From: an uncultured Candidatus Peribacteria bacterium
GTDB lineage: Bacteria > Patescibacteriota > Gracilibacteria > Peribacterales > Peribacteraceae
DNA: 64,000 nucleotides
Direction: 5' to 3'
Assembly: GCA_964611095.1 (NCBI GenBank)
Contig: CAZSWJ010000003.1
Location: forward strand, 17,796-81,795
The notes under the pieces are model-generated. The model was not told the origin of the DNA. It ran no database searches and saw nothing but the letters and a program-made list of their open reading frames with translations. The translations under genes and the position numbers were made by a program. Positions 5,464-62,766 of the stretch are shown here, piece after piece; the first letter of the stretch is position 1, and each line of letters starts with the position of its first letter.

Positions 5464-6036
5464 ATGGCTGAACTGCCCATCGTCGCACCGACGTCGGCCC
5501 AAGGCTGGGAAGACTGGCTGGACGCGAACCACACGACGTCCAAAGGCGTGTGGCTGCGGCTCTTCAAGAAAGATTCGGGCAAGCAAAACCTCACGTATCC
5601 CGAATCCATCGTCATCGCGCTGTGTTTCGGATGGATCGACGGCGTGCGACACAAAGGTGACGATCTGTCGTACCTGCAACGCTTCACGCCGCGCAGAAAA
5701 GGCGGCAACTGGTCCAAGATCAACGTGGCATCGGTGGAACGACTCACAAAGGAAGGAAAGATGCGCCGGGCCGGCATGAAAGAGGTGGAGGACGCCAAAA
5801 AAGACGGCCGCTGGGATCGCGCGTACCACGGCCAAGGAAAAGCCGACGGGCCGCCGGATTTCCTCGAGGCTCTGAAGAAAAACAAGAAAGCGCTCGCCTT
5901 CTACGAGTCGCTCAACAAGACGAACACGTACGCCATCTATCATCGGCTGCAAACGGCCAAGAAACCGGAGACGCGGAAAAAAAGATTCGACACGTTCCTC
6001 GAGATGATGAAGAACGGCAAAAAGTTGTACCCATGA
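5464..6036 (+). CDS. YdeI/OmpD-associated family protein
   Basis: WEDWLDANH...GVWLRLFKK...ALCFGWIDGVR...RFTPRRKGGNWSKIN...PDFLEAL...NTYAIYHRLQTAKKPETRKKR. Start moved to the ATG at 5464. Confidence 0.7.
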   Translation: MAELPIVAPTSAQGWEDWLDANHTTSKGVWLRLFKKDSGKQNLTYPESIVIALCFGWIDGVRHKGDDLSYLQRFTPRRKGGNWSKINVASVERLTKEGKMRRAGMKEVEDAKKDGRWDRAYHGQGKADGPPDFLEALKKNKKALAFYESLNKTNTYAIYHRLQTAKKPETRKKRFDTFLEMMKNGKKLYP

Positions 6037-7160
6037 AGAAGATCCCCGCCATCAACGGCCTGCGCGGCATCGCGATACTGACGGTGATGGGGTACCACAT
6101 GTGGTACCCCATGGTCGGAGCACGGATCTCCACACCCTTCCTGTCGATCGGTGACACGACGCTGCTCCATTACGGCTTTTTGCAGAGCGGCCAGATGGCC
6201 GTGTATTTGTTCTTCATCATTTCGGGGTTCGTGCTGGCGCTGCCGTATGCCATGGGAACCCGAACGATGGCGAGTAAAAAAGACGCATGGCAGTTCTATA
6301 CGAAGCGTGCGTCGCGCATCCTGCCGCTGTACTACGTTCATCTTGCGATCATCCTGACCATGTACAACCGTTTGCCGAAAGAGATACCGATGATGCTTCG
6401 CGACATCGTGCTCATGGGAACGGCCACGTTTCACTTCGTTCCATCGATGTGGTTCCCGACGTACAACGGCGTCCTGTGGTCCATCGGTTCGGAAATTTGG
6501 TTCTGCGTGCTCATGCCCGGAATCCTCTGGGCCATCCGACGGTACGGACTTGTGCGAACCGTGGTAACCGTCGGGTTTTGCAGCATCCTCATGCAGTGGT
6601 GGGGAACGGTCACCGTGGGAGGAGGCGTGAATTACATCACCGACAACGTCATCGGCGATGCCATCTATTTCTGCCTGGGCATTGCGGCCGCATACGCGCA
6701 CATTCGTCATCGCTTCCGACGACCGTTCCTTCTCGCAGCGACGGGCGCCGTGCTTCTTGCGACAGCGTTCCTGCTGCAAGACAGGGTGATGGTGGGCGCA
6801 TGGCACTTGAAACCGACGATAACGCCGATCATCACCGCCGTATTTGCCGTCGGTTGCACCGCCCTGATGCTCGGACTCATCCATTCCCGCAGCAGAGTAC
6901 TGAGCGCAATCTTCTCGAATCGTCCTCTGCAACTCGTCGGGATGATGAGTTATTCGCTCTACCTCTGGCATCCGTATGCATTGCCCATATTCACTGCCGA
7001 AGTGACATCCTTCAATTTCGTTCGCATGTGCCTGGCGCTCTCATTGCTGGGTTGGCTGAGCTACCGCTACGTCGAATTCGGATGGGTGAAGAACGTCCAT
7101 GAGTTGCTGCCGAAGTCGAGGCAGTCTACACATGACACGAGCCCAATCCCCGTTTCATGA
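6033..7160 (+). CDS. acyltransferase family 3 membrane protein
   Basis: INGLRGIAILTVMGYHMW N-terminus, about 10 TM helices, MSYSLYLWH motif. ATGA overlap with the upstream stop. Confidence 0.8.
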   Translation: MKKIPAINGLRGIAILTVMGYHMWYPMVGARISTPFLSIGDTTLLHYGFLQSGQMAVYLFFIISGFVLALPYAMGTRTMASKKDAWQFYTKRASRILPLYYVHLAIILTMYNRLPKEIPMMLRDIVLMGTATFHFVPSMWFPTYNGVLWSIGSEIWFCVLMPGILWAIRRYGLVRTVVTVGFCSILMQWWGTVTVGGGVNYITDNVIGDAIYFCLGIAAAYAHIRHRFRRPFLLAATGAVLLATAFLLQDRVMVGAWHLKPTITPIITAVFAVGCTALMLGLIHSRSRVLSAIFSNRPLQLVGMMSYSLYLWHPYALPIFTAEVTSFNFVRMCLALSLLGWLSYRYVEFGWVKNVHELLPKSRQSTHDTSPIPVS

Positions 7161-13113: not shown

Positions 13114-14174
13114 GCGGCATCCGCCGGAGGAAGGACGAGGAAGCTCACGAGCGTTCCCACGATGCCCGTCATCACGATGAGTCCGGCCCACAGGTGCACC
13201 GTCCACCACATGCCGCTTTGAACGTGAATCGTGAGGAAGTATCCCGTGAAGAGCACCGCCGGAATGAGGAAGCTCGCGATGCGGACTTCTTTGCGATGAC
13301 GCTCAAGCGGATGCATGCGCTGCGCCAAGGCATCGGCGACGATGCCCGCGACGAACGCGGCGGGAAGCAGGGACAGACCGTCACGCATCACCCCCATGGC
13401 GTACATCGTCGTAAGGAAGACGAACGTGAGTCCGCCCGTAGCGAGCCTTCCGCGACGAAGTACGAGGAGGACAGCACCCATGAGAATGGCAGTGGAGAGG
13501 AGCGCTCCGCTGATGCTGATATTTTGCGACATGTCGGCGATGACGGGATCATCCCAACCGGCTCCACCCGCGCGCATACTGACGAAGTGCGAGAACTGCG
13601 TCATGAACCAGATGAGCGCGATGGTGAAGGACAGCGACAGAAGCATCGACAGCTGTTTGCGAAAACTCGGCACTCCGAGCGGCGGGATCGCAAGGAACCA
13701 CACGCGAAGTCCGCTCGTGACCATAAGGAAGAGCGCCGTTGCGAGGACCAAATGCGTGGGGCTGAGAAGCGCTTCGATATCGGCCTCCACGCCGAAGATC
13801 TGGTGCCAGGTCATATCGCCGATGCCTCCGAGTGCAAAGAGTGCGACGCCGAGCAGTGCCGGGGCGTATCCGTGCGGAATGGCGGACGAGAACGAGGAAC
13901 CCATGATTTTTTTGCGACGAAGCACGATGCCGAGCAACGTGAGCGCCGTGAGCGCATAACCGGAATAAAACACGGCGTGCCACGGTGTGAAAAACGTCTC
14001 GAGTTCCGGGATGTGATTGTGTGCCCAACCGTCCATGAAAAGCCCCGTCATAAAGACAAGAAGCGCCGCAGACAGAAGCCATTCTTCGCGTTCCGTCGGA
14101 AGCCGCGCCGCGGCATCATCGGCTTTCTCCCGATGTTGATGATGAAGCGAGCGAAGTTTGAGTGAAAACGACAT
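13110..14174 (-). CDS. hypothetical polytopic membrane protein
   Basis: 354 aa with about 9 hydrophobic helices (FMDGWAHNH, GDMTWHQIFG). No family recognised. Confidence 0.6.
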   Translation of the reverse strand: MSFSLKLRSLHHQHREKADDAAARLPTEREEWLLSAALLVFMTGLFMDGWAHNHIPELETFFTPWHAVFYSGYALTALTLLGIVLRRKKIMGSSFSSAIPHGYAPALLGVALFALGGIGDMTWHQIFGVEADIEALLSPTHLVLATALFLMVTSGLRVWFLAIPPLGVPSFRKQLSMLLSLSFTIALIWFMTQFSHFVSMRAGGAGWDDPVIADMSQNISISGALLSTAILMGAVLLVLRRGRLATGGLTFVFLTTMYAMGVMRDGLSLLPAAFVAGIVADALAQRMHPLERHRKEVRIASFLIPAVLFTGYFLTIHVQSGMWWTVHLWAGLIVMTGIVGTLVSFLVLPPADAA

Positions 14175-14373: not shown

Positions 14374-16443
<2,070 letters not shown>

Positions 16444-16446
16444 AAA

Positions 16447-16513
16447 GCGGCTGGCGGGTAGCGAGTAGAGAGCATGTGCTTTTCTATCCGCTACCCGCTA
16501 CTCGCTCACCGCC
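16447..16513. repeat. heptamer-array palindromic element, copy 1 (GGGTAGC-type)
   Basis: Left arm ...GGCGGGTAGCGAGTAGAG, right arm CCGCTACCCGCTACTCGCTCACCGCC. Starts 4 nt after the hppA stop. Confidence 0.75.
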
Positions 16514-16568
16514 ATCAAGAACACAACGGATTCTGTGCCTGAACGGTTTCTTTCGTTATAATCCCATC

Positions 16569-17966
16569 ATGCGACGCACCGTTTCCGTCGGCCTTTTTCT
16601 GTCTTTGGCACTCGCCTTGTATCCGAGCGCGCTGCTGGCACAGCAAGCTCCAAACTACGACGAAGCCACGCTCACATCGCTCTACACCGCGTTCTTGAAG
16701 AAGAATTCCTCCGACACGTACCTGGAAAAACGCATCGCCGACGAGCGCGCCCGCATCCGCACCATCGCCGACAAAGAAGTGAAAGCACTCGTGGACCAGA
16801 GCGACAAAGACGATCAGGCGCTCGACGCCGTTGCGCTGCCCAAAGCGCTGGATCGTCAGCGCGCCATCGTCCAGCAACTGGAAGAGCAGCGCCGCAACCG
16901 CGCCGTGGACGTGGACCTGCTGTCCGAAGAGGAAAAGAAGTTTTACCTCTCTGATGCCGCCGACACCGAAGCGGACGTCTTGCGCCTCACCAAGACGCAC
17001 GGCGAACTCCTGGCCAAGAAAGCGATCTTGGAGGAGCGCATCGCCGCACTCGATGCGGGACTCGCGCTCCAAAACGACCGCCTCAGCAAACTGAATCGCG
17101 AACAGTGGATCGATCAGTTCTCGTCGCTCTTCGGCTTCGGCAGCTACGTGCTCATCATTCTCGGCGCCATCCTGCTGGATCGCTTGATCCGAAGGCGTAT
17201 CGCCAAACGACTCCAGGCCAAAGGCGGTCGTTACATCATTTCCAAAATCGTCACCGCGATCATTTACGTGACGACCGCGCTGTGGATTTTCAGCAAACTG
17301 ATCTCCGATCATCCGGGTGCGCTGGCTTCCCTCGCCATCGTGGGTGCCGGTATCGCCGTCGCGCTCCAGGACGTGGTGAAGGACATCATGGGCTGGATCA
17401 TCATCTGGCAGCGCAGGCTCTTCACGCTCGGCGACCGCGCATCCATCGGCAAGTACACGGGCGACATCATCGATATCGGCCCCTTACGGACCACGATGCT
17501 CGAAGTGAGCACCGACGGTGCGTTCAACGCGCACGAGCGCACGGGCAAGACGCTCTACGTTCCGAACTCGATGGTGCTCCGCGAATCGATCTTGAACTAC
17601 AACACGACATCGGACTTCATGAGCGTGGAAATGCAGGTCACCGTGACGTACGGCAGCGACTGGAAGAAGGCCGAAGCCATCATCCATGAAGCGCTCGTCA
17701 CGGAAACGGGATCCTTCGTGGAGCAAGCGCAGGCACAGCAACGCAGGCGCACGGCGCTCTTCTACACCATGTGGGAAGTGGGCGAACCCGAAGTGCACAC
17801 GGATATCGCCAGCAGCGGCGTGCTCTTCACGCTCAAGTTCACGGTTCCCATCGGCAGGCGCCGCATCGTCATCACCAAACTCTCCAAAATGATCCTCGAC
17901 CAGTTCAAAGCAGCGGGCATCGAGCTCGCGTACAACACGGTGCAGGTGGTGGGTGGACTTCGGTAG
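16569..17966 (+). CDS. mechanosensitive (MscS-family) channel with N-terminal signal peptide and coiled coil
   Basis: LFTLGDRASIGKYTGDIIDIGPLRTTMLEV...LYVPNSMVL core, three TM helices before it. ATG at 16569 (MRRTVSVGLFL). Confidence 0.8.
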   Translation: MRRTVSVGLFLSLALALYPSALLAQQAPNYDEATLTSLYTAFLKKNSSDTYLEKRIADERARIRTIADKEVKALVDQSDKDDQALDAVALPKALDRQRAIVQQLEEQRRNRAVDVDLLSEEEKKFYLSDAADTEADVLRLTKTHGELLAKKAILEERIAALDAGLALQNDRLSKLNREQWIDQFSSLFGFGSYVLIILGAILLDRLIRRRIAKRLQAKGGRYIISKIVTAIIYVTTALWIFSKLISDHPGALASLAIVGAGIAVALQDVVKDIMGWIIIWQRRLFTLGDRASIGKYTGDIIDIGPLRTTMLEVSTDGAFNAHERTGKTLYVPNSMVLRESILNYNTTSDFMSVEMQVTVTYGSDWKKAEAIIHEALVTETGSFVEQAQAQQRRRTALFYTMWEVGEPEVHTDIASSGVLFTLKFTVPIGRRRIVITKLSKMILDQFKAAGIELAYNTVQVVGGLR

Positions 17967-24685: not shown

Positions 24686-24697
24686 GAGAGCGGACAG

Positions 24698-24770
24698 CGT
24701 GTAGCGATTTGCGGGTAGACCGCCTGCTTTTCGTGCAACAAATTCCTCCGCTACTCGCTAACCGCAATCA
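24698..24770. repeat. heptamer-array palindromic element, copy 3
   Basis: GTGTAGCGATTTGCGGGTAGA - ccgcctgcttttcgtgcaacaaattcct - CCGCTACTCGCTAACCGCAATC. The centre is homologous to the copy at 36124. Confidence 0.7.
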
Positions 24771-24773
24771 CTC

Positions 24774-25457
24774 TTACAGCGGCTTCTGCTTCGGTAGTCC
24801 GACTTTTCGAGGATAGTCACTCGGAGTCGGTCCGGCCTTTTTGAAGAACACGAGCGTGCGCTTGCCCCACTCGGCGGGAAGGTCGTACTCGAACGTTCCG
24901 GCGAACGGACACTTGAGCGATTTCTGCGCGACGGCCGAGGACTTCAGCTCATCGGCGACTTTCGTGCTCTTCCAGAAAACGCAGAGACCGCCGACTTTGA
25001 GCAGCGGCACGGCGTATTCCATGATGACGGCGATGGGTGCGACTGCTCTGGCCGTGACGATATCGAACGTTTCTCGATACTTCTCATCGTGGCCCAATTC
25101 TTCCAGGCGTCCGCAAATGAGTTCCGTGTTCTTTATCTCCATGGTTTCGGCGATGCGACGCACGGCATCGACTTTCTTGGCGATGGAATCCATGCCGACG
25201 CAGCGGGCAGCAGGCAAACACAGAGCAAGCGGCAAAAGCGGAAAACCGCCACCCGTTCCGATGTCGCAGAGTGACGAAACGGTCTTGAGCTGCGGATAGG
25301 CGTCCGCGGCCTGCAGGAGTGCGAGAGAATCGAGGACGTTGCCCGTCCAACAGTGTTCTTCGCTGCGGAATGCCGAAAGATTGAGCTTTTGGTTCTCGGC
25401 CAGGAACACCTGGACCAGTTGCCGGAGGCGGGTTTCGTCGACGGTCATCCCGCCCAT
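24774..25457 (-). CDS. rsmG: 16S rRNA (guanine527-N7)-methyltransferase
   Basis: LNLSAFRSEEHCWTGNVLDSL, CDIGTGGGFPLLPLAL, VTARAVAP. Confidence 0.9.
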   Translation of the reverse strand: MGGMTVDETRLRQLVQVFLAENQKLNLSAFRSEEHCWTGNVLDSLALLQAADAYPQLKTVSSLCDIGTGGGFPLLPLALCLPAARCVGMDSIAKKVDAVRRIAETMEIKNTELICGRLEELGHDEKYRETFDIVTARAVAPIAVIMEYAVPLLKVGGLCVFWKSTKVADELKSSAVAQKSLKCPFAGTFEYDLPAEWGKRTLVFFKKAGPTPSDYPRKVGLPKQKPL

Positions 25458-28492: not shown

Positions 28493-28941
28493 TACTCGGC
28501 CTTGAGCTTGGCGATGCGCTCGAGGAGTTTTTTCTGCAACTTCTTGTCGCTCTCGGCCAAGATGCGCAGCGTTGCCAGTGCGGCGTTCTTGTAACCGCAG
28601 ATCGTCATCACCGGAACGTCGGACGGCATGCGCAGGCTGCTGTGAATGTCCACCATGTATTCCTCGAGCGACGCGTGCGGCGGGCAGTTCACCACGGGGT
28701 GCACGCAGCTTCCGGCGACGACTCCGCCGAGACCGTTGCTCATGCCGACGCAGGTCACGACGACCGTGGGCTCGGTTTGCTTGTTGAGTCTCTCGATGAC
28801 GGCGACGACTTTCTCCGGAACTTTGTGTGCGGAAGCGACGACAATCTCCGAGGTGACTTGGTATTCATCGAGGAGAGCGGCGATTTTCTTGGCGAAATCG
28901 ACATCGAGTTTGGATCCGAGGAGAAAAGTGACGGTAGGCAT
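28489..28941 (-). CDS. purE: PurE-family AIR carboxylase / N5-CAIR mutase (class II-like motifs)
   Basis: SAHKVPEKV, VGMSNGLGGVVAGSCVHPVVNCPP resembles the AIRC domain of eukaryotic PAICS ([21 protein letters not shown], recalled from memory). ATG at 28941; the longer track ORF runs into a repeat element. Confidence 0.8.
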   Translation of the reverse strand: MPTVTFLLGSKLDVDFAKKIAALLDEYQVTSEIVVASAHKVPEKVVAVIERLNKQTEPTVVVTCVGMSNGLGGVVAGSCVHPVVNCPPHASLEEYMVDIHSSLRMPSDVPVMTICGYKNAALATLRILAESDKKLQKKLLERIAKLKAEY

Positions 28942-28960
28942 GGGGGGATTATACAAAAAA

Positions 28961-29036
28961 ATCCAAGAAACCAAAGTAACCAAGGAAACCAACGATATCC
29001 TTGGTTTCCTTGGATTCCTGGGTTTCTTTGGTTTCC
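28961..29036. repeat. nonamer-array palindromic element, copy A (CCAAGGAAA-type)
   Basis: ATCCAAGAAA CCAAAGTAA CCAAGGAAA CCAA - cgatatcc - TTGG TTTCCTTGG ATTCCTGGG TTTCTTTGG TTTCC. The inner 13 bp are perfect. Confidence 0.85.
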
Positions 29037-34727: not shown

Positions 34728-36131
34728 ATGCAGCATCTCGGACTCATCGGCCTGGGCGTCATGGGAGCCAACGTGGCCCGCAACGCCGCTCGTAACGGGG
34801 CGACCGTCGCCGTGTATAACCGCACGACCGAAAAAACCGACGAATTCATGCGCGCGCACGGAACGGAGGGAACGTTTATTGCCTGCCACACACTGGCTGA
34901 ACTCGTGTCCACGCTCCCCGCTCCGCGGTCGATTCTTCTGATGGTGAATGCGGGCGCCGCAGTGGACGCCGTCATCGATGAACTTCTGCCGCTGCTTTCC
35001 CAAAATGACGCGATCATCGACGGCGGCAACAGCTTGTTCGCCGATACCGAGCGCCGTGAGAAAGCGCTCGCCCCCAAAGGAATCCTGTACCTCGGCATGG
35101 GAGTCTCCGGCGGCGAAGAAGGTGCGCTCCTCGGCCCCAGCATGATGCCGGGCGGCAGCCCCGAAGCGTACGCACGACTTGAACCACTCCTGAAAAAGAT
35201 GGCCGCCAAAGACGGAAGCGGCGGCAAGTGCGTGTCGCTCCTCGGCCAAGGCGGCAGCGGACACTTCGTGAAGATGGTTCACAACGGCATCGAGTATGGC
35301 GACATGCAGCTCATCGCCGAGACGTACCACTTGATGAAGTCGGTGCTCAAGCTGGGCAACGCCGACATCGCCGAAACGTTCCAACGCTGGAACCGCGGCA
35401 AAGAACTCAAATCATTCTTGATCGAAATCACGGCGTCGATTTTTTTGAAGAAAGATGATCAAGGAACGCCCGGCGACCTCATCGACATGGTGAAAGACGA
35501 GGCAAAGCAAAAAGGCACGGGCAAGTGGACGACGCAAACCGCGATGGATTTGGGCGTGAGTATCCCCACCATCACCGCCGCCGTGGACGGACGCCTGATG
35601 TCCTCGCTCAAAACGCTCCGCACGTCGGCCGAAGCCGCCGTGGGTCCGCTGGAACTGAAGAACGTGAAGTTGACGGTTCGCGCACTCAAAGACGCGCTGT
35701 TCCTCAGCAAGATCTGTTCGTACGCCCAAGGCATGGCGATGATCACGGAGGCCGCGAAGACGCACGGTTGGACCGTGGATTTGGCCGAAGTCTGCCGCAT
35801 TTGGAAAGGCGGCTGCATCATCCGCTCCACGCTCCTCAAGGAATTCGAGACCGCGTTCCGCACCGACCCGAACCTGCCCAACCTGATTCTGGCCCCGAAC
35901 ATTCTGCCGCTCTTCCAGGCGCGTCACGCCAAGTGGCGCAAAGTGGTGAGTGCCGCCGTCCTCGCCGGCATCCCGCTGCCGTCGATGACAGCTTCGCTCT
36001 CGTACTTCGACGGACTTCGCACAGCGCGACTTCCGCAGAACCTCACGCAAGCGCAGCGCGACTTCTTCGGAGCACACACGTACGCAAGGACGGATCGAGA
36101 TGGAGTATTTCATTCGGTTTGGGGCGGGTAG
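34728..36131 (+). CDS. gnd: 6-phosphogluconate dehydrogenase (decarboxylating)
   Basis: LGLIGLGVMGANVARN, IIDGGNS, GVSGGEEGA, KQKGTGKWTTQ. ATG at 34728. Confidence 0.93.
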   Translation: MQHLGLIGLGVMGANVARNAARNGATVAVYNRTTEKTDEFMRAHGTEGTFIACHTLAELVSTLPAPRSILLMVNAGAAVDAVIDELLPLLSQNDAIIDGGNSLFADTERREKALAPKGILYLGMGVSGGEEGALLGPSMMPGGSPEAYARLEPLLKKMAAKDGSGGKCVSLLGQGGSGHFVKMVHNGIEYGDMQLIAETYHLMKSVLKLGNADIAETFQRWNRGKELKSFLIEITASIFLKKDDQGTPGDLIDMVKDEAKQKGTGKWTTQTAMDLGVSIPTITAAVDGRLMSSLKTLRTSAEAAVGPLELKNVKLTVRALKDALFLSKICSYAQGMAMITEAAKTHGWTVDLAEVCRIWKGGCIIRSTLLKEFETAFRTDPNLPNLILAPNILPLFQARHAKWRKVVSAAVLAGIPLPSMTASLSYFDGLRTARLPQNLTQAQRDFFGAHTYARTDRDGVFHSVWGG

Positions 36132-36209
36132 CGGTTGGCGAGTAGCGAGTAGAACGCCGGTTTTTCGCGCAGCAAAAAAACCCACCCGCTACACGCTATT
36201 CGCTACTGG
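36124..36209. repeat. heptamer-array palindromic element, copy 2 (its first unit provides the gnd stop codon)
   Basis: GCGGGTAGCGGTTGGCGAGTAGCGAGTAGA - acgccggtttttcgcgcagcaaaaaaaccca - CCCGCTACACGCTATTCGCTACTGG. Confidence 0.8.
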
Positions 36210-36212
36210 CCC

Positions 36213-46029: not shown

Positions 46030-47424
46030 CTAGAGGTGAAAAGGTGAACGGGGTTTGGGAGTGAGCGAAGCGATGACTTTTGCCAGGTGCGCGGCATCGT
46101 CGGGAGCGGATTTCTTGCCGGTGAAATGCTCGAACTGCTTGAGTGCCTGGTGGATGAGCATCGCCGTTCCGTCGTGGACGTGGAAGCCTTGGCTCCGCGC
46201 GTCTTTGATGAAGTTCGTCGGCTTGCCGTAGCGCAAATCGATGGCGGCGGCCGAAACACCGAGAGGTTTCGGCAGCGGCAGCCGAACGTCCTCGGACACG
46301 GCGCAGATCACGAGATCGGCGGACACTTTCTTGATGGTCTCAAGCGGTTGAACGGCAACCTTCCATGAACCGAGCGACAGCGCGGCTTTCTTGGTATCAC
46401 GCACGAAAACGGTGATCTCGGCTTTGGCGTTCACGTTGCGAATGGCGGAGATGACGGAGGGCACCGCACCACCCGCGCCGAGCACGGCGATCCGCGCCGC
46501 TTTCGCAATGAGCGGGTACCCCTTTTCGATGCCGACGATGTCGGTGTTGAACCCGTTCCAGTCTTTGCCGGACTTCACGAGCGTGTTCGTGACTCCGAGT
46601 GATGTCGCGACCGCATCGTTCTCGGTTGCGAATTCAAATGCATCACGTTTGAACGGAGCGGTGACGGAAAGTCCTGCGAGGCCCAGTTCTTCCAGAGCCT
46701 TGATGGCGGACGCGAAATCCGTGGAGGGGAAACACGAGTACAGCGCGTCGATGCCGTGTTTCAGAAAGAGCGCGTTGTGGATGACGGGACTGAGCGACAC
46801 GGCGATCTGCGGACCCCCGAGAATGCCGTAGAACTTGGGCTTCGTGCGATTCTTGAGCAGCTTGTGGAACGCGAGGGTGAGTTGCCCGGGGGCCGATGCC
46901 TCGGTACCAAGCACTGCGTACGTGAGGTGATTTCGGAGCGGCGAAAGGACGCGTGTGAGATGCGCCAAAGGCCCCATGCCGAGGATGGTCGTGCGCGGAT
47001 GCGAGGCGGATGCACGGAGTGCGTCCAGTGTGAGCAGGTCGTCGCACGAATTCACGGTGACCGCGATTTTGACGGCCCACGGGCGAACGGCACACAGCTT
47101 GGTGAGCACGGCCTTGAGCTTCTTCAGATCCGGCGTTGCTTTGTGATCGTGGAAGCTGGCAATGAGCTTGGCGCCATCGGGCAGATCTTTGCGGAGCGCA
47201 AGCTCCGACACGTCGAGATCGACGAACTCGGGCGAGATGCGCGAAGCGAGTTTCAGCCCTTTGCCACGCGGAGAAAACAGAACGGGCAGCGGCGACTCGA
47301 ATGCGGGTACGCCGGGCGTGAGGTCGCCGCGGATTTCGAGCACATCGACCTCGGCTTTGCGCGCATCGCGGGCGAAGGTTCGCGGATCTTTCTCTGCCGA
47401 TTTGGGGAGCGTGACGATGATCAT
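46030..47424 (-). CDS. aroDE: fused type I 3-dehydroquinate dehydratase / shikimate dehydrogenase
   Basis: N-terminal DVLEIRGDL...SFHD (AroD), then FYGILGGPQIAVSLSPVIHN, NTD, VLGAGGAVPS (AroE). Confidence 0.88.
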   Translation of the reverse strand: MIIVTLPKSAEKDPRTFARDARKAEVDVLEIRGDLTPGVPAFESPLPVLFSPRGKGLKLASRISPEFVDLDVSELALRKDLPDGAKLIASFHDHKATPDLKKLKAVLTKLCAVRPWAVKIAVTVNSCDDLLTLDALRASASHPRTTILGMGPLAHLTRVLSPLRNHLTYAVLGTEASAPGQLTLAFHKLLKNRTKPKFYGILGGPQIAVSLSPVIHNALFLKHGIDALYSCFPSTDFASAIKALEELGLAGLSVTAPFKRDAFEFATENDAVATSLGVTNTLVKSGKDWNGFNTDIVGIEKGYPLIAKAARIAVLGAGGAVPSVISAIRNVNAKAEITVFVRDTKKAALSLGSWKVAVQPLETIKKVSADLVICAVSEDVRLPLPKPLGVSAAAIDLRYGKPTNFIKDARSQGFHVHDGTAMLIHQALKQFEHFTGKKSAPDDAAHLAKVIASLTPKPRSPFHL

Positions 47425-49181
47425 GAACGTGGAGAACGGGTGATGCGCGTGAGTTCGCGGATGATGTACGGAATGTGCTCGGAGAAACGCAACGTTTCCC
47501 CGACCTCGATGTGCGCAGCCTCCTTGTAGTGCGGCGTACGCTCAGCGACGAGCTTCTTCACCTCCTCCTCCAGCGGCAAATCCGTGAGCGACGGACGCTT
47601 TTCATTGCCGAGCCTCTTCACGAGCTCCTTCTCCGACGCTTTGAGCCACACGACGATGGAGCGATCCCGCACGAGCTTGCGCGACTTTTCGGAAATCAGC
47701 GCTCCTCCGCCGAGTGAGACGATGCAGCCCGGTACCAGCGCCTCGGCCAACACATCTTCTTCGGCCGATCGGAATGCGGGCCACCCTTTTTCGGCGACGA
47801 ATGGCCGAATGGGCCCGTGCTTTTTTTCAAACATCTTGTCGGTATCGACGAACTTCAGCTTGAGCTTGGCCGCGAGTCTCTTGCCCAGGTTCGATTTGCC
47901 GACGCCGCGCATACCGATGACGGTGACGGGACGCGTGGACGCAAGAAGTTCTTCGAGATCCTCAAAAAACGCCGGGTAACTTTTTGCGACGCAATCGGGA
48001 TTCGAGATGCCGATGCCTCCTCGGAGCAGCCCGAGAACGGCGAAGCACATCGCCATGCGGTGATCGTCGTGCGGATCGAGCGTGACGGCCTTCGCTTGCC
48101 CGTCTGCTTTGGAACCATGCACCACGATGCCGTCCGGAGTTTCTGCGATGCGCACACCTGCCTTGGAAAGCTCGGACGTGATGACGGCGAGACGATCGCA
48201 TTCTTTGCGACGCAAATTCGCGGCGTTCGTCACGGTCATGGATCCGCTGCGACGCGAGGCGAGCACGGCGAGATTCATGACTTGGTCCGGAATTTCCGTG
48301 GCATCGACGACGATGTCGCCCGACTTACGCAGCGTTCCGAGGACGGACGGCAGCGCGCGATCGGATTGCATCGAATCGGGACGAAGATTCGGGAACGTGA
48401 TCATGCTGCCCGTGAGTTCACGGAGCACGAGCCAGGCGCCGGCGGCACTCCAGTCGCCCTCGATGTCGTAGATCGCTTTTGCGACGTAGTCTCCGGATCG
48501 TACAACAAATGTGTTCGACTCTTGTGACACGCTGATGCCGAAATCATTCATGGTCTTCTTCGTGAGATCGACGTAGCCCGACGATGCGAGCGTACGTGCG
48601 ACGGTGACGGACAAACCGTCTTTCAGAATCGGAGCGATCAAGAGAAGCGACGAGAGAAACTGGCTGCTGATGCTTGCGTCCAACGTGACCTCGCCTCCCT
48701 TGAGCGTTCCGCCGCGAATGTGAATCGGCGGACAATTATTCGTATCATTGATCTCGGCTCCGAGACTCTTGAGTGCCTTCGTCAAATCACCGATGGGTCG
48801 CTTTCGCATGTGCTCATCACCGGTGATCGTCCATTCGCCGGGCACGACGCACGCGAGCGAAACCAGAAACCTGAGCGTGGTCCCCGCATTGTGACAATCG
48901 AGGCTACCCGCTACCCGCGCACCGCTACCCGCCGGTATGCCACCGTTGATACGAAGCTCGCCTTTGCTCTTGTCGATCCACGAAATATCAAACCCGAGCT
49001 TCTTTAAATTCTCCACCATGACCGCGACGTCATCGCACGGTGTGGCGCCACGGATGACGGTGGTGCCCTTCGCGAGCGCTGCGCACACGATGGCGCGGTT
49101 GGCATGCGACTTGGACCCCGGGAGCGTGAGTGACGCCTCGAGAGGAATGCGGAGCACGGGAATGGAGACGGATGCCTTCAT
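47421..49181 (-). CDS. aroAK: fused EPSP synthase / shikimate kinase
   Basis: LPGSKSHANRA, RMRKRPIGDL, SSQFLSSLL (AroA), then VIGMRGVGKSNLGKRLA...FVDTD (AroK). Confidence 0.9.
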   Translation of the reverse strand: MKASVSIPVLRIPLEASLTLPGSKSHANRAIVCAALAKGTTVIRGATPCDDVAVMVENLKKLGFDISWIDKSKGELRINGGIPAGSGARVAGSLDCHNAGTTLRFLVSLACVVPGEWTITGDEHMRKRPIGDLTKALKSLGAEINDTNNCPPIHIRGGTLKGGEVTLDASISSQFLSSLLLIAPILKDGLSVTVARTLASSGYVDLTKKTMNDFGISVSQESNTFVVRSGDYVAKAIYDIEGDWSAAGAWLVLRELTGSMITFPNLRPDSMQSDRALPSVLGTLRKSGDIVVDATEIPDQVMNLAVLASRRSGSMTVTNAANLRRKECDRLAVITSELSKAGVRIAETPDGIVVHGSKADGQAKAVTLDPHDDHRMAMCFAVLGLLRGGIGISNPDCVAKSYPAFFEDLEELLASTRPVTVIGMRGVGKSNLGKRLAAKLKLKFVDTDKMFEKKHGPIRPFVAEKGWPAFRSAEEDVLAEALVPGCIVSLGGGALISEKSRKLVRDRSIVVWLKASEKELVKRLGNEKRPSLTDLPLEEEVKKLVAERTPHYKEAAHIEVGETLRFSEHIPYIIRELTRITRSPRS

Positions 49182-51328: not shown

Positions 51329-51408
51329 ACTGATTGATGCGGTCTACGCGGAAATTCCGCCTCCCTGTCTCTCATAGGGATGCGTGCGTGTCCTAGGAGA
51401 GATGGAAT

Positions 51409-51558: not shown

Positions 51559-52839
51559 TCACGCCGAAACGGTCTTGCCGCGTACGGGACGGAGTGACGT
51601 GTGCCATAAGATCCACGCCATTTGGATGAACAAGATGAACGTGGCGGAAGCCACGAGCACATCGAATGCCGGAAAAATCTTGAAGAAGTAGAGCACGAAC
51701 TTGCTGATGGGGAACGATGCGAGCAAGTTGAAGAGGAGCGCCAGAAGCAGAAACCCGACGGTGACTCTCCCCTTTTTCATGAAGAACAGGAGCGGCACGG
51801 CGCACGCGACGAACGGAAAGAAGTATCGATCGTGCATCTGGGTACTGAAGACGAAGAAGCCGAGTGTCGTCACCGATGCGGCGGCAAGCACCGCCTCGGT
51901 GCGGATGCGAAGATCCGTATTCTTCCGAAGCACGGTCCAGAGTCGCCATGAGAACGCGGCGTAGATGACGGCAACGATGGCAAGTCCGACGGTGCGATGC
52001 GTGGCGATCATGGCGAACATTTTGAGGTCCGACGTGTTGCGTGCGGCGTCTCCGAAGAGTGCCCACCAGAAGTTGTAAGCGTACACGCTGAGGGAGGGGT
52101 AATAACCCACGAGAGACTTGTACGTATCGAAGACATCACCGAGCGTTCCATTTTGGAAGAACGGAGCGATGATGAGCAACGTGACGGCAAGGGCGCCGAT
52201 CAAAAAATATTCGATGTCCTTTCGCTGCGTGAAGAGAATCACGGCGGCGACGGGAAAGAAAAAGATCGCCTGCAATTTCATGAAGAACGCGAGCGCCATG
52301 CAAATGCCCGCAATGACGGGATGCCGCCACAGGAGCGCCACGATGGCGCCGAATGCCAAGCCCGTGTAAATGGAATCGGTCTGGCCCCAACTGGCCGAAA
52401 TGACCCACGTGGCCGGGTACAGCAAGTACACGGCGGCGGCGGCAATACCGGCACGATCGGAAATGCATGCGCGCACCATGGCGAACAGCAGCAGCCCCAG
52501 AACGATATCGGCGAAAATGCTCGGCAGTTTCATGAGTCCGAGCAGAAGCGGTGAATTTTCCATGATGTCGCCGTGCACGATGCCGTACGTCTTCACCATG
52601 GTTCCGAAAATGGCGAGCCCCACCGGAGGATAGTTGGGCCGCATGACGTTGTTCACGCGCACGCGATAACTTTGGGTCCAGCCCGATTTTACGACGGAAC
52701 GTCCCCAATTTTGCACGATGCCGACGTCGCCGAACCCTCCCGGATATGAGAGTTGCGTTGCGCGAAGAACGATGCCCGCGACAACGACGAGCGCGAGGAG
52801 TCCGTACGTCACACGTGGTGTCCATGTCTTCGCGACCAT
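51559..52839 (-). CDS. GT-C fold membrane glycosyltransferase (DUF2029/mannosyltransferase-like)
   Basis: About 11 TM helices. The N-terminal loop YPGGFGDVGIVQNWG...NYPPVGLAIFG is typical of lipid-linked-sugar transferases. ATG at 52839; the track start is TTG. Confidence 0.6.
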   Translation of the reverse strand: MVAKTWTPRVTYGLLALVVVAGIVLRATQLSYPGGFGDVGIVQNWGRSVVKSGWTQSYRVRVNNVMRPNYPPVGLAIFGTMVKTYGIVHGDIMENSPLLLGLMKLPSIFADIVLGLLLFAMVRACISDRAGIAAAAVYLLYPATWVISASWGQTDSIYTGLAFGAIVALLWRHPVIAGICMALAFFMKLQAIFFFPVAAVILFTQRKDIEYFLIGALAVTLLIIAPFFQNGTLGDVFDTYKSLVGYYPSLSVYAYNFWWALFGDAARNTSDLKMFAMIATHRTVGLAIVAVIYAAFSWRLWTVLRKNTDLRIRTEAVLAAASVTTLGFFVFSTQMHDRYFFPFVACAVPLLFFMKKGRVTVGFLLLALLFNLLASFPISKFVLYFFKIFPAFDVLVASATFILFIQMAWILWHTSLRPVRGKTVSA

Positions 52840-52942
52840 GGGGATCAGTGTACCGCGTACCGCGAGCGAAGAACTCACCTCATCCGTTCGTGTCAATTCG
52901 CTCTTTCACTTTTAAGCGGAGATTCGATACGCTGTTTCCAAC

Positions 52943-54547
52943 ATGAAAGAACAGCTGAGAAGCCTTTCTCGAAGCGTCGTCCGTTTCTTCGAACGGTACG
53001 GCATTCTTCTGCTCTTCGTCGTTGGAATCGTCGTGCGGTTCGTCGCACTGTCATCGTTTCCGGGAGGGATGAACCAAGACGAAGTCTCTGCGGGATACGA
53101 CTCGTTCGCGCTCCTCAGCGGCGGCACGGACAGACACGGCATCCCGTGGCCGGTGGTTCTGCCCGCGTGGGGCCCAGGCATGAACAGCTTGGCGTCGTAC
53201 ATTCAGATGCCGTTCATCGCGATCTTCGGACTCACGACGTTCGCCATTCGCCTCCCTTTTGCGATCACGGGATGCATCACGCTGTTTCTGTTTCATCGCT
53301 TCTTGCAATGCATCGCCGATAAGAAAACCGCGGTCCTCGGACTGCTGCTCCTGGTGATAAGTCCGTGGCACATCGCACTGAGCAGGTGGGGTTTGGAGGC
53401 GAACCTTTTGCCACTCTTCTTTCTGATCGGCGCGTACGGCACTGCCGTAGCACTCATTGAAGGAAGAAAGAGCGGACTCTACGGTGCGGCGGCCGGCTTC
53501 GGTCTGTCCCTCTATACCTACGGGACGGCGTACGTGGCACTGCCCGTGTTCTTGGTGACGTTTCTGCTCTTCATGATGCTCCGACCGCGGAGCAATGCCA
53601 CGACCATCCCCCGCCACGTCTGGTACGAGTCTGCGACGATTCTCCTGGCACTCGCCGCACCGATCATCTTCTTCATTCAGATCAATTCGTCGCACCTGGG
53701 CAATTTGTCGTTGGGACCGATCACCGTTCCGGAACTACCGACGAACGCACAGTTTCTGCGGGCAAGCCTTCTTGCATCGGCACATCCCATCCGCGATGGC
53801 TGGAACAACCTGTACGGACTCCTCCACATGCTCGTGCATCAGAACGACGGAACGTTCTACAACGTGCTCCCGGGTTACGGGATTTTGTACGCCGCCAGTG
53901 CTCCGCTCGCCGCTCTCGGATTCGTCAGTGCGATCATCGCCATGATCCGCCGCAAACGGCATGTCGGCATGTCGATTCTCTTTTCGTGGTTCATCGCGGG
54001 CCTCGCCGTCGGCACTCTTGTGGCCGTGAACATCAACCGCGCCAACATCATCATGCTTCCGTTCGTCGCATTCACGACACTGGGTCTGCGCGTTCTTGCG
54101 CGATGGAGACCGGTGCTTGCAGTGGCCTGCGCGTACTTCGCGGTTTCGTTCGTCATGTTTTTGTACGCGTACTTCGTGACGTACGTGCCGCATTTGCATT
54201 GGCGATTCCAATCCGGCCTGACGGAAGCGCTCACGGCGGCCTCGATGACGGAAGGAAAGATCTGCGTGACGGACCAAGCCGTGATGCCGTACATCTACGC
54301 GCTGTTCGCCGCAAAAATTCCGCCCGAGCGCTACTACGCCACCGTGCAGTTCATCGATCCGAAACGCTCGTTCCAGGAAGTGCGTTCGTTCGACAGGTAC
54401 ACGTTCGGACTCCCGCACTGTCCCGATGACATATCGACCTACGTCCTCACGACAAGAGAGGGTGCGCAGGCACGATTCGCCGACGACACGACGTTCTCCA
54501 AACAAACATTCGAGTCGTACGTGACGATCACGAAGCACGGATTCTGA
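52943..54547 (+). CDS. glycosyltransferase family 39 (ArnT/PMT-like)
   Basis: FPGGMNQDEVSAGYDSFALL first-loop motif, 11-12 TM helices, soluble C-terminal domain. Confidence 0.7.
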   Translation: MKEQLRSLSRSVVRFFERYGILLLFVVGIVVRFVALSSFPGGMNQDEVSAGYDSFALLSGGTDRHGIPWPVVLPAWGPGMNSLASYIQMPFIAIFGLTTFAIRLPFAITGCITLFLFHRFLQCIADKKTAVLGLLLLVISPWHIALSRWGLEANLLPLFFLIGAYGTAVALIEGRKSGLYGAAAGFGLSLYTYGTAYVALPVFLVTFLLFMMLRPRSNATTIPRHVWYESATILLALAAPIIFFIQINSSHLGNLSLGPITVPELPTNAQFLRASLLASAHPIRDGWNNLYGLLHMLVHQNDGTFYNVLPGYGILYAASAPLAALGFVSAIIAMIRRKRHVGMSILFSWFIAGLAVGTLVAVNINRANIIMLPFVAFTTLGLRVLARWRPVLAVACAYFAVSFVMFLYAYFVTYVPHLHWRFQSGLTEALTAASMTEGKICVTDQAVMPYIYALFAAKIPPERYYATVQFIDPKRSFQEVRSFDRYTFGLPHCPDDISTYVLTTREGAQARFADDTTFSKQTFESYVTITKHGF

Positions 54548-54617
54548 ATATCGTTGACAACCGTTTCCTATCACTCTACAATGCCGAGTGATAATTATGT
54601 GAACTTTTTGGCCTACC

Positions 54618-57217
<2,600 letters not shown>

Positions 57218-57221
<4 letters not shown>

Positions 57222-59635: not shown

Positions 59636-62593
59636 ATGGATTTCATCAAGGTCAGAGGCGCCAGGATGCACAATCTCAAGAATATCGACGTCGATATTCC
59701 CAAGCATTCGCTGACGGTGATCACGGGCCTCTCCGGCTCGGGAAAATCGTCGCTCGCCTTCGACACGATTTTCGCCGAAGGACAGCGCCGTTACGCCGAA
59801 TCTCTCTCGGCCTACGCGAGACAATTCATTTCGCAGATGGAAAAGCCGGAGGTCGACAGCATCGAAGGGCTTTCCCCGGCCATTTCCATTGATCAAAAAA
59901 CTGCGCCAAGAAACCCCCGCTCCACCGTCGGAACGGTCACCGAAATTTACGACTACATGCGTCTTCTGTGGGCCAAGGTCGGACAGGTCCACTGCCCCAT
60001 CACGGGAAAGCCCCTCAGCAAGCAGTCGCCCAGCCAGATCACGGACATGATCACGCGCATGCCCGAGGGCCGAAAAATCATGCTCCTCTCGCCGCAGATC
60101 ATCGGACGCAAAGGTGCGCACCAGAAAGTTTTGGACACCATCAAGCGCGAAGGTTTCGTCCGCATGCGCGTCGACGGACAAATCGTGACCGCCGATGAAG
60201 ATCTGCAACTGGACCCCAAGAAGAGCCACGACATCGAAATCGTCGTGGACCGCATGGTGGTGCGCGATTTCGAACCCGTGACGGAGAAACTCAGCGACGG
60301 CACGAGCGTGGAACAGCCCAACCCGAACCGCGTGCGTCTCGCGGACAGCGTGGAACTCGCGCTCAAGAAAGGAGAAGGAATGCTCTTCGTCCTCGACGCC
60401 GACTCCGGCGAACTCACGAAGTTCAGCGACCGGTTCGTGAACCCCGACTACCCCGAGATGAGCATTCCGGAAATCGAACCGCGCAGCTTCTCGTTCAACT
60501 CGCCGCACGGCGCATGTCCGCACTGCCACGGCATCGGAAGCATTCTGCAGATCGACGCCGCAAGCATCGTCCCGAACCACGATCTCACGGTCGCCGAAGG
60601 CGCCATTCATCCGTGGGCCACGTCCGCCGGACGCATGAGCTTCATGCTCCAGACGCTCACGGCACTCGCCAAGAAACTCAAGTTCTCGCTCGATCTCCCG
60701 TGGAAGGACCTCACGCCCGAGGCGCAGAAAATCGTGCTCTACGGCCACGCCGAAAAAGTGGACGTGGACTTCCTCACCGAGAAATTCGACGGTCACTACC
60801 AGACGACGTACGAAGGAGTGATCCCCAACCTCGAACGCCGCCACAAAGAAACGGACAGCGCCTACACGCGCTCGCAGATCGAGGCCTACATGTTCGAGCT
60901 CCCCTGCCCGGAATGCCACGGCAAGCGCCTGCGCAAAGAGATTCTGGGCGTCACCGTGAGCGGCAAGAACATCGTGGACGGAACGGAAATGAGCGTGGTG
61001 ACTGCGAGGAAGTTTTTCGAGAGCTTGATTCCGGAAAAAAGCGGAGAGCGGGTAGCGGGTAGCGGGGAAAAATCAGTGACAAAGAAAAAGGAAGCGCTAC
61101 CCGCCAACCGCCAACCGCTATCCGCTTACGAATACACCATCGTCCGGAAAGTGATCTCGGAAATCATCTCGCGCCTCAACTTCTTGGAGAACGTGGGTCT
61201 CAAGTACCTCACGCTCAACCGCTCGGCCGCGACTCTCTCGGGAGGCGAAGCGCAGCGCATTCGTCTCGCCACACAGATCGGTTCGGCACTCGAAGGCGTG
61301 CTCTACGTGCTCGATGAACCGAGCATCGGTCTGCATCAGCGCGACAACACCAAGCTCATTAAAACGATGACGAACCTCCGCGACATCGGCAACACCGTCA
61401 TCGTCGTGGAGCATGATCAGGAAACCATCGAGTCCGCCGACTGGCTGCTCGAAATCGGTCCCGGCGCCGGCAAACACGGCGGCGAAGTGGTGGCCCAAGG
61501 TACGCCCAAGGAACTCATCGGCAACGCCAAGTCCGTCACGGGCCAGTACCTCTCGGGCAAGAAGAAAATCGACGTGCCGAAGAGGCGCCGCACGGGCAAC
61601 GGCAATTTCGTGGAGATCACGGGTGCCACGCACCACAACCTCAAGGACGTGCAGGCCAAGTTCCCGCTGGGATGTCTCATCGGCATCACGGGCGTCTCGG
61701 GCTCGGGCAAATCCAGCTTGATCCACGGCATTCTCGCTCCCGAACTTTTGCGTACGCTCAACAAGGCGCATGCCAAAGGCCAGGACTTCAAGGAGATCAA
61801 GGGGCTGGGTCACTTGGACAAAGCCATCGTCATCGACCAGTCCCCCATCGGACGCACGCCCCGGAGCAACCCCGCAACGTACACGGGCATCTTCACGGAA
61901 GTGCGCGACGTGTTCGCCATGACCCCCGAAGCCAAGACCCGCGGCTACAAGCCCGGCCGCTTCAGCTTCAACGTCTCGGGCGGACGCTGTGAGGACTGCG
62001 AAGGCGACGGACTCAAGCGCATCGAAATGCACTTCCTCCCCGACGTGTACGTGACGTGCGAGACGTGCCGCGGCCAGCGCTACAACCGCGAAACGCTCGA
62101 GGTGACGTACAAGGGAAAGACCATCGCCGACGCGCTCAACATGACCATCACCGAAGGACTCGATTTCTTCGCCGCCTTCCCGTCCATCAAGAACAAGTTG
62201 CAGACCTTGAGCGACGTGGGACTCGGCTACATCCACTTGGGCCAGAGCGCCACGACCCTCTCCGGAGGCGAGGCGCAGCGCATCAAGCTCGCGACGGAAC
62301 TCACGAAGCGCGCCACCGGCAAGACGTTCTACATTCTCGATGAACCTACGACGGGCCTGCACTTCGATGACATCCAGCGCCTGCTCGACGTTCTCCAGAG
62401 ACTCGTGGAAAAAGGAAACACCGTGCTCGTCATCGAGCACAACCTCGACGTCGTGAAGTCCGTGGACCACGTCATCGACATCGGTCCGGACGGCGGCGAC
62501 GAAGGCGGCCGCATCATCGCGGTGGGCACGCCCGAGGACGTGGCGGAGGTGAAAGAGAGCTACACCGGACAGTATCTGAAGAAGATGCTGTAG
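59636..62593 (+). CDS. uvrA: excinuclease ABC subunit A
   Basis: [14 protein letters not shown], Zn modules CPHCHG / CPECHG / CEDCEG..CETCRG, two LSGGEAQRI signatures, [10 protein letters not shown]. Confidence 0.97.
61040..61127. repeat. heptamer-array palindromic element inserted in frame inside uvrA
   Basis: AGCGGAGAGCGGGTAGCGGGTAGCGGGG - aaaaatcagtgacaaagaaaaaggaa - GCGCTACCCGCCAACCGCCAACCGCTATCCGCT. Translates as [30 protein letters not shown]. Confidence 0.7.
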
Positions 62594-62596
62594 AAA

Positions 62597-62675
62597 GGAA
62601 TCCAAAGAAACCCACGAAACCAAAGAAACCAAGGATTCGTTGGTTTCCTTGGTTTCTTTGGTTGCCTTGGCTTCC
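62597..62675. repeat. nonamer-array palindromic element, copy B
   Basis: GGAATCCAAAGAAACCCACGAAACCAAAGAAACCAA - ggattcg - TTGGTTTCCTTGGTTTCTTTGGTTGCCTTGGCTTCC. Starts 4 nt after the uvrA stop. Confidence 0.85.
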
Positions 62676-62766
62676 TCCCTGAAACATTCATAACATTGCA
62701 GAAATCATTTTTTATGATATCGTCACCCACAATTTCTCCATCTTCTACTACTTCTACCTCTTCTTT

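Follow-up and report, generated by a model that had tools for sequence, protein, structure and literature searches.

The 64,000-nucleotide stretch analysed here (the window; positions 17,796 to 81,795 of contig CAZSWJ010000003.1, assembly GCA_964611095.1 of an uncultured Candidatus Peribacteria bacterium) raises the question of how a long palindrome of tandem 7-nt repeats, whose canonical unit brings a stop codon with every copy, came to be embedded in uvrA, a DNA-repair gene, without breaking its reading frame. The gene (59636-62593, + strand) encodes 985 residues with both ABC modules, is intact, and was predicted as a single gene bearing UvrA Pfam domains; its product matched solved UvrA structures with E = 0. 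By the names of its closest homologues, the organism falls into Candidatus Peribacteraceae (Peregrinibacteria). On comparison of the sequences, we consider it probable that the segment is one copy from a family similar to REPs (repetitive extragenic palindromes), lodged in a permissive, disordered loop of the protein and translated as a passenger peptide.

The palindromic heptamer segment that the initial annotation had placed at 61040-61127 reads as it was described. It is an imperfect palindrome of approximately 88 nt (61039-61127) with two arms of 28 nt each (61039-61066 and 61100-61127), which are 82% complementary, are separated by a spacer of 33 nt and are built from the 7-nt units AGCGGGT/ACCCGCT. 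The units follow each other head-to-tail, as seen from a period of 7 with a self-match of 81-86% in both arms. Read on the + strand, the left arm consists of the four heptamers AGCGGAG, AGCGGGT, AGCGGGT and AGCGGGG and gives the peptide SGERVAGSG, the A-rich loop (61067-61099) gives a 10-aa peptide, and the right arm (CCCGCCA, ACCGCCA, ACCGCTA, TCCGCTT) gives another peptide of 10 aa and is free of stop codons in all frames in this orientation. The predicted fold of the single strand was better than that of 200 out of 200 dinucleotide shuffles (z = -4.8 as RNA and -5.5 as DNA), with a stem of 4-5 helices of 4-7 bp interrupted by internal loops every 7 nt. A sliding-window minimum free energy scan of the window failed to separate such elements from the G+C-rich background, so an inverted-repeat aligner was used. 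The segment is not an assembly artefact, because it was found unchanged in a second assembly (L081, 99.9% identity over 12 kb) and in contigs from the freshwater source runs (X1). No Rfam family matched the region of the segment.

The initial annotation had compared the segment with three intergenic elements, at 16447, 24698 and 36124. All of them exist, at 16438-16516, 24688-24772 and 36122-36210 (+ strand), and a further copy is located past the window end, following a NUDIX gene (positions 13166-13253 of the second assembly). The first begins approximately 3 nt past the stop codon of an H+-pyrophosphatase gene (14374-16443), the second lies directly downstream of rsmG/gidB (24774-25457, - strand), and in the third the first TAG (36129-36131) doubles as the stop codon of gnd, encoding 6-phosphogluconate dehydrogenase; each of the four intergenic copies begins no more than a few bases from where a gene ends. 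They share the heptamer unit, its arrangement and the loop core GTAGA..GTTTTTCGYG..AC, and this T-rich core is held by the reverse complement of the A-rich loop in uvrA. The proposed identity of architecture and unit was borne out, with the correction that the uvrA copy has the opposite orientation: as a whole element it is placed at 61041-61127 on the - strand, where the best score was that of the reverse complement of the orientation in which the intergenic copies were aligned. Aligned in this way, the five copies have a mean column identity of 69%, loop core included. A leave-one-out covariance model derived from the four intergenic copies only detected the uvrA copy on the - strand with 52.7 bits (E ~6e-13), compared with 37.2 bits for the + strand, and a cmsearch with the model designated R1 gave 89.2 bits on the - strand versus 48 on the + strand. 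We assign the segment to the intergenic family because the model trained without it matches it at 52.7 bits.

The covariance search suggested at the outset yielded five full copies and one half copy in 66 kb, and those in frame are the uvrA copy and the half copy. The latter is a one-armed array of four heptamers (48903-48935, - strand) within an aroA-aroK fusion gene (47421-49181, - strand), whose reading frame remains intact through the array; it encodes PAGSGARVAGS ahead of the LDCHNAGT motif, it matches the four-copy model weakly (14.4 bits), and its 33 nt correspond to 24 unrelated nt in the sister species L016. The AGCGGGT-type unit is found at six loci of one genome, whereas the 22.9 kb examined from the sister species have no such locus. 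When 586 kb of DNA from 31 Peribacteria loci were scanned with the model, hits to the family were confined to this genome and, in three other species, to the uvrA linker. An 8-nt direct repeat, TCCGGAAA (61030 and 61143), was considered as a duplication made by insertion and was rejected, since conserved uvrA codons lie within it. The flanks of the five copies share no target-site duplication.

A canonical array of this unit contains TAG every 7 nt and therefore stops each of the three frames within 21 nt, whereas the uvrA frame is open across the whole palindrome, as seen in the translation of 59636-62593. The frame is kept open because each arm differs by 3 x 7 nt and because the unit that would supply an in-frame TAG reads GAG instead (61046-61048, + strand), this being the sole unit boundary at which TAG from a canonical unit would be in frame with uvrA. 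The two TAGs that do exist (61053-61055 and 61060-61062) occupy frames that uvrA does not use, and the left-arm array stops short of the next in-frame TAG position. In another species with a linker of this type (L082), the in-frame TAG position is likewise replaced and reads AAG. As 3 x 7 = 21, three units per arm can be gained or lost without a frame shift, and this is the difference seen between the window and the sister species. Steps of three units per arm together with one T-to-G change are thus a read-through route for a repeat that carries stops in three frames.

The approximately 30 extra residues that the initial annotation had located between the FFESL helix and the next helix were recovered by comparison with UvrA of Geobacillus (2r6f), for which phmmer left residues 469-496 of the query unmatched, corresponding to an insert of 28 aa. 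The linker between the motifs FFxxL and RLxFLxxVGL comprises 53 aa here versus 24 aa (n = 21) or 26 aa (n = 5) in 26 UvrA sequences from outside the Peribacteria, i.e. from other phyla and other lineages of the candidate phyla radiation (CPR). It is also shorter in the nearest relatives. The sister species L016, which is the closest species in GTDB (UvrA 97% identical; approximately 85% nucleotide identity in synteny), lacks exactly 21 nt, i.e. three heptamers, on either side of an alignable A-rich middle, in total 42 nt or 14 codons. In related strains from runs of two other studies (X5 and X9; flanks 92-95% identical at the nucleotide level), 33 nt replace 75 nt of the window. A homologous non-palindromic peptide of the length seen here, which would have spoken for an ordinary protein segment, is absent from these nearest orthologues. 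Throughout a 14.2-kb alignment with the sister species, only three coding length differences of at least 6 nt were found, namely the two uvrA blocks, a 9-nt aroA block and a 7-nt difference where one small open reading frame (ORF) ends.

In an AlphaFold2 model of UvrA based on a 48-sequence alignment (mean predicted local distance difference test score, pLDDT, of 74.7), residues 464-496 were modelled as coil, with pLDDT <50 for residues 470-491, between the helix 454-463 containing FFESL and the helix 497-519; the inserted segment is therefore a predicted disordered loop on the surface, away from the core fold. According to the Geobacillus structure paper, this position reportedly lies within signature domain I. 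UvrA contains another extra stretch of approximately 18 aa relative to the Geobacillus protein, at residues ~207-235 (60254-60340), which is conserved in Peribacteraceae orthologues, unlike the linker.

The peptide itself is of low complexity and is a direct read-out of the DNA repeat. It could in principle be adaptive, for example as a flexible, lysine-rich tether that aids the contact of UvrA with DNA, and the middle of the linker is indeed lysine-rich in many orthologues (KKKE, KSKKKKD, NKKKED). We regard such a role as extremely unlikely because there is no conservation at the protein level: not even the closest species have the sequence in common, the segment is predicted to be disordered, and its residues are dictated by the palindromy of the DNA, SGERVAGSG being the translation of AGCGGGT repeats and the lysines stemming from the A-rich loop.

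According to the interpretation that we favour, the family consists of palindromes of approximately 75-90 bp, with arms made of short tandem arrays of the GTAG-containing heptamer GTAGCGG and with a T-rich loop core. The intergenic copies, directly downstream of genes, would form hairpins at the 3' ends of transcripts in the manner of REPs, and the uvrA copy sits in reverse orientation in an inter-helix loop that is predicted to be disordered and is hypervariable in length in the Peribacteraceae. The segment would be transcribed and translated together with uvrA as a low-complexity passenger of 28-30 residues with no role of its own, presumably neutral for UvrA. Its persistence would be due to the tolerance of the loop for almost any sequence, to the three-heptamer (21-nt) steps of the arms and to the G in place of T in one heptamer, and its arrival or growth may have occurred by a REP-like process acting on hairpins, either by a transposase or by template switching and slippage.

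A further type of long palindrome in the window bears on how such elements arise. A second family, with arms of the tandem 9-nt unit AAAGAAACC, is represented at 28959-29034, between the divergent purE (start at 28941, - strand) and a tRNA-Ala gene (29189, + strand), and at 62596-62676, beginning 3 nt past the uvrA stop codon. After the uvrA stop codon of the sister species there is a palindrome of the same build with another unit, AAAGAATAC, and conserved flanks. Similarly, the AGCGGGT palindrome that follows the NUDIX gene in this strain has a GGTTTCYTT array in its place in the sister species. In the Peribacteria loci in general, periodic palindromes were found whose units are specific to the genome.

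These observations are relevant for a rather improbable alternative, namely growth in place, in which a proto-palindrome of the linker was expanded by heptamer slippage in one arm and copied to the other arm by intrastrand template switching (quasi-palindrome correction), the likeness to the intergenic copies reflecting a genome-wide mutational or conversion bias without transposition. In-place dynamics are favoured by the symmetry of the difference from the sister species, with two blocks of exactly three heptamers flanking an alignable loop, and by the turnover of units at orthologous intergenic sites, after the uvrA stop codon and after the NUDIX gene, which keep their architecture and flanks. 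Moreover, aroA contains one arm only, and, among the long repeat units of prokaryotes, heptamers are reported to be the most prone to slippage (PMC4679880). However, slippage alone leaves unexplained why one unit is present at six loci here and at none in the 22.9 kb of the sister species, and the uvrA copy possesses the intergenic loop core and was recognized by the model blind to it. The sharing of the loop core and the occurrence of one unit at six loci of a genome speak, in turn, for a common source.

The distribution of inserts in other UvrA proteins indicates that the linker is a recurrent site. Among the 120 closest UvrA sequences (Peribacteraceae) the linker measures 31-72 aa (median 42), and it reaches at least 45 aa in 55 of them. 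Where the DNA of long linkers was at hand, they were usually hairpins of differing units, such as AAAGAAACA (9 nt; L003), GTGAGAC (L007) and a GGATTCC-type unit (L009). AGCGG-type linkers were additionally found in L082, L083 and L084 (UvrA 84%, 73% and 74% identical), at the same site and in the same orientation. The AroA loop that carries the half copy also varies in length among the Peribacteria, with repeat-like peptides in several species. In the Peribacteraceae metagenome-assembled genome GCA_013140485.1, a canonical 28-nt GTAG REP, GTAGGGGCAAGGCATGCCTTGCCCCTAC, is located in frame in the same UvrA site, in the same AroA loop, in aroB and in aroD-aroE; all four copies in 15.5 kb (L205 4383-4412; L206 2569-2605, 3258-3294 and 4859-4895) are intragenic and are always read as GARHALPL. 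Since the same two loops are used in two genomes by two unrelated palindromic families, tolerance of these loops is the best explanation.

The recurrence could also reflect selection of the hairpin at the level of the nucleic acid, as an inter-domain translational pause, a site for an RNase or for processing, an attenuator within the gene or a structure in the DNA, with an incidental peptide. This is suggested by the fact that hairpins recur at one uvrA position across species while their sequence changes completely and structure is kept, by the enrichment of uvrA over other genes in ~586 kb, and by the unexplained excess of intragenic REPs reported for DNA-repair genes (PMC3733652). We consider it very unlikely, because the nearest relatives lack the hairpin and other loops are colonised: 7 of the 14 linkers tested, among them that of the 97%-identical sister species, folded no better than shuffles, the 92-95% identical strains have no hairpin, and the aroA loop is occupied too, together with aroB and aroD-aroE in another genome. 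The apparent covariation, moreover, comes free with palindromic families.

Several points weigh against a passive passenger, which we nevertheless regard as the probable explanation. The AGCGG-type linkers are scattered across a neighbour-joining tree of the 120 UvrA sequences, so that a wholly passive origin would require either that one site was hit repeatedly or that the linkers were lost many times. In ~586 kb of Peribacteraceae DNA, periodic palindromes within real genes were found only in uvrA, apart from the aroA array, and this restriction exceeds what tolerance alone predicts (two apparent in-ORF palindromes, L010 9788-9857 and L007 14129-14188, were rejected because their ORFs are spurious and antisense). 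Furthermore, the A-rich loop aligns about equally well with the linker of the sister species and with the intergenic loops, which suits insertion of an entire element and growth of the arms in place alike, and no transposase was detected among the 8 window proteins scanned against Pfam, a scan that included no dedicated search for REP-associated tyrosine transposases (RAYT). As a tentative and rather doubtful proposal, the Peribacteraceae may hold fixed "slots" (gene 3' ends and a few protein loops, such as the UvrA linker and the AroA loop) that are refilled over time by the active palindromic family of each genome through a site-directed mechanism, either hairpin-directed replacement or templated addition of heptamers that alters both arms in concert, and not through selection filtering random insertions. 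If this were true, the presence of AGCGGGT, GTGAGAC, AAAGAAACA or a GTAG REP at one site would be the outcome of an active, site-directed and undescribed process.

Three further differences and features were recorded in this DNA. A region of approximately 4.4 kb (52755-57221, encoding a PMT_2 glycosyltransferase and ClpB) separates blocks that adjoin in the sister species, and points to an insertion or rearrangement between the genomes. The sister species has, opposite the intergenic position 51348 of the window, a 54-nt insert (~5980-6033) with the palindrome GAGTGAAAGA...TCTCTTTTCACTC, which is not in the window. A perfect 26-nt palindrome, ATGGGGTACCACATGTGGTACCCCAT, is situated at 6087-6112, within the predicted gene 6033-7160.

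Related arrays are widespread in environmental DNA. When JGI metagenomes were scanned for GTAGCGRGTAG...CTACNCGC, at least 120 stretches were returned, on contigs of 39-70% G+C, mostly inverted GTAGCGA/ATAGCGA arrays. Among the matches listed, and with crude ORF calls based on G+C at the third codon position (GC3), 15 of the classifiable elements lay between convergent genes, 19 between unidirectional genes and none of the 34 between divergent genes, and 14 of the 58 ORFs reading into an element ended at its TAG[C/T]G. In-frame copies were rare among the elements listed, and most ORFs that seemed to cover an element were rejected as spurious. The inverted GTAGCGA/ATAGCGA arrays (L085-L164) were common in high-G+C contigs from soil, peat and freshwater, nearly always just past gene ends. 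The unit strings of these GTAGCGA/GTAGCGG heptamer-array palindromes, abundant in soil and freshwater metagenomes, had no description in the literature searched.

With this locus, the CPR joins the lineages in which palindromic repeats are known to occupy essential genes in frame; CPR genomes are small and offer scarce intergenic space. The UvrA linker and the AroA loop are natural permissive sites, tried by dozens of lineages with unrelated inserts, and are of use in protein engineering and in judging insertions during annotation. In addition, orthologous sites whose units turn over make the spread and homogenisation of REP-like families amenable to study.

REPs are among the closest known systems. 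Di Nocera, De Gregorio and Rocco (2013; PMC3733652) described GTAG- and CGTC-tagged REPs that are mostly located just past ORFs, with unidirectional or convergent neighbours, and whose TAG often supplies the stop codon of the neighbouring gene. According to the same authors, a minority of REPs lie in frame inside genes, where they encode 7-30 aa and cluster in genes of DNA repair, among them Thioalkalivibrio uvrA and both uvrA genes of Opitutus terrae (in Oter_3168 the REP occupies residues 440-462), and some Rickettsia palindromic elements (RPEs) are identical with CGTC REPs. The initial annotation had called in-frame colonisation of essential genes rare outside Rickettsia; this was overstated, as in-frame palindromic repeats in uvrA and other repair genes have already been published and the behaviour is known. 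The elements of the window resemble REPs in that they are GTAG-bearing palindromes, in that all four intergenic copies follow gene ends and in that the gnd stop codon is the TAG of an element. They differ in structure: a REP is a single hairpin of 20-40 bp with a stem of 6-13 bp and one unpaired terminal GTAG tag, whereas these elements measure 75-90 bp, have 3-4 tandem heptamers per arm and a loop of 20-33 nt, and bear GTAG once per heptamer, inside the arms. Neither are they REP dimers, since a single arm is not self-complementary. Because they fail the structural definitions of both REPs and miniature inverted-repeat transposable elements (MITEs), in the latter case for want of a shared target-site duplication, we set them apart from both.

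The behaviour recognized initially was that of the RPEs, and this likeness was upheld: a repeated palindrome lies in frame as an extra, predicted surface segment in conserved genes that it does not disrupt (uvrA is intact through the insert, as is aroA-aroK through the half copy), it is present in one genome and missing in full length from close relatives, and it also occurs in non-coding DNA. RPE-1 to RPE-8 were reportedly distinguished by Ogata and co-workers in 2000. RPEs, however, belong to the Alphaproteobacteria, span ~100-150 bp and are not tandem heptamers, whereas the present copies are mostly intergenic and come from the CPR (Peregrinibacteria), so that homology in sequence is not to be expected.

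The G+C-rich hairpins, which lie a few nt from a stop codon and have unidirectional or convergent neighbours, also recall intrinsic (Rho-independent) terminators, but in none of the copies is the stem followed by a U-tract, the T-run being inside the loop, and the stem is broken every 7 nt. As the second-family palindrome at 28959-29034 sits between divergent genes, a terminator reading of all the periodic palindromes is weakened. Tandem heptanucleotide repeats are known from other bacteria, for example the STRR of cyanobacteria. The elements share with such repeats the short head-to-tail arrays of a genome-typical 7-nt unit, whose stop-rich orientation means that the arrays can overlap the ends of genes or else be read in the reverse orientation alone. 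In the Beggiatoaceae, TAACTGA heptamer arrays are mostly intergenic, have stop codons in three frames in the forward orientation, and are arranged as direct repeats that typically lie upstream of start codons, with only one inverted pair reported among 170 sets (PMC4679880). In contrast to these direct arrays, those in uvrA and the intergenic regions described here are paired as inverted repeats, the intergenic ones usually past stop codons. What differs here is the pairing of tandem heptamer arrays in one long hairpin, its occurrence in a CPR lineage and the fact that unlike families have repeatedly used one and the same loop.

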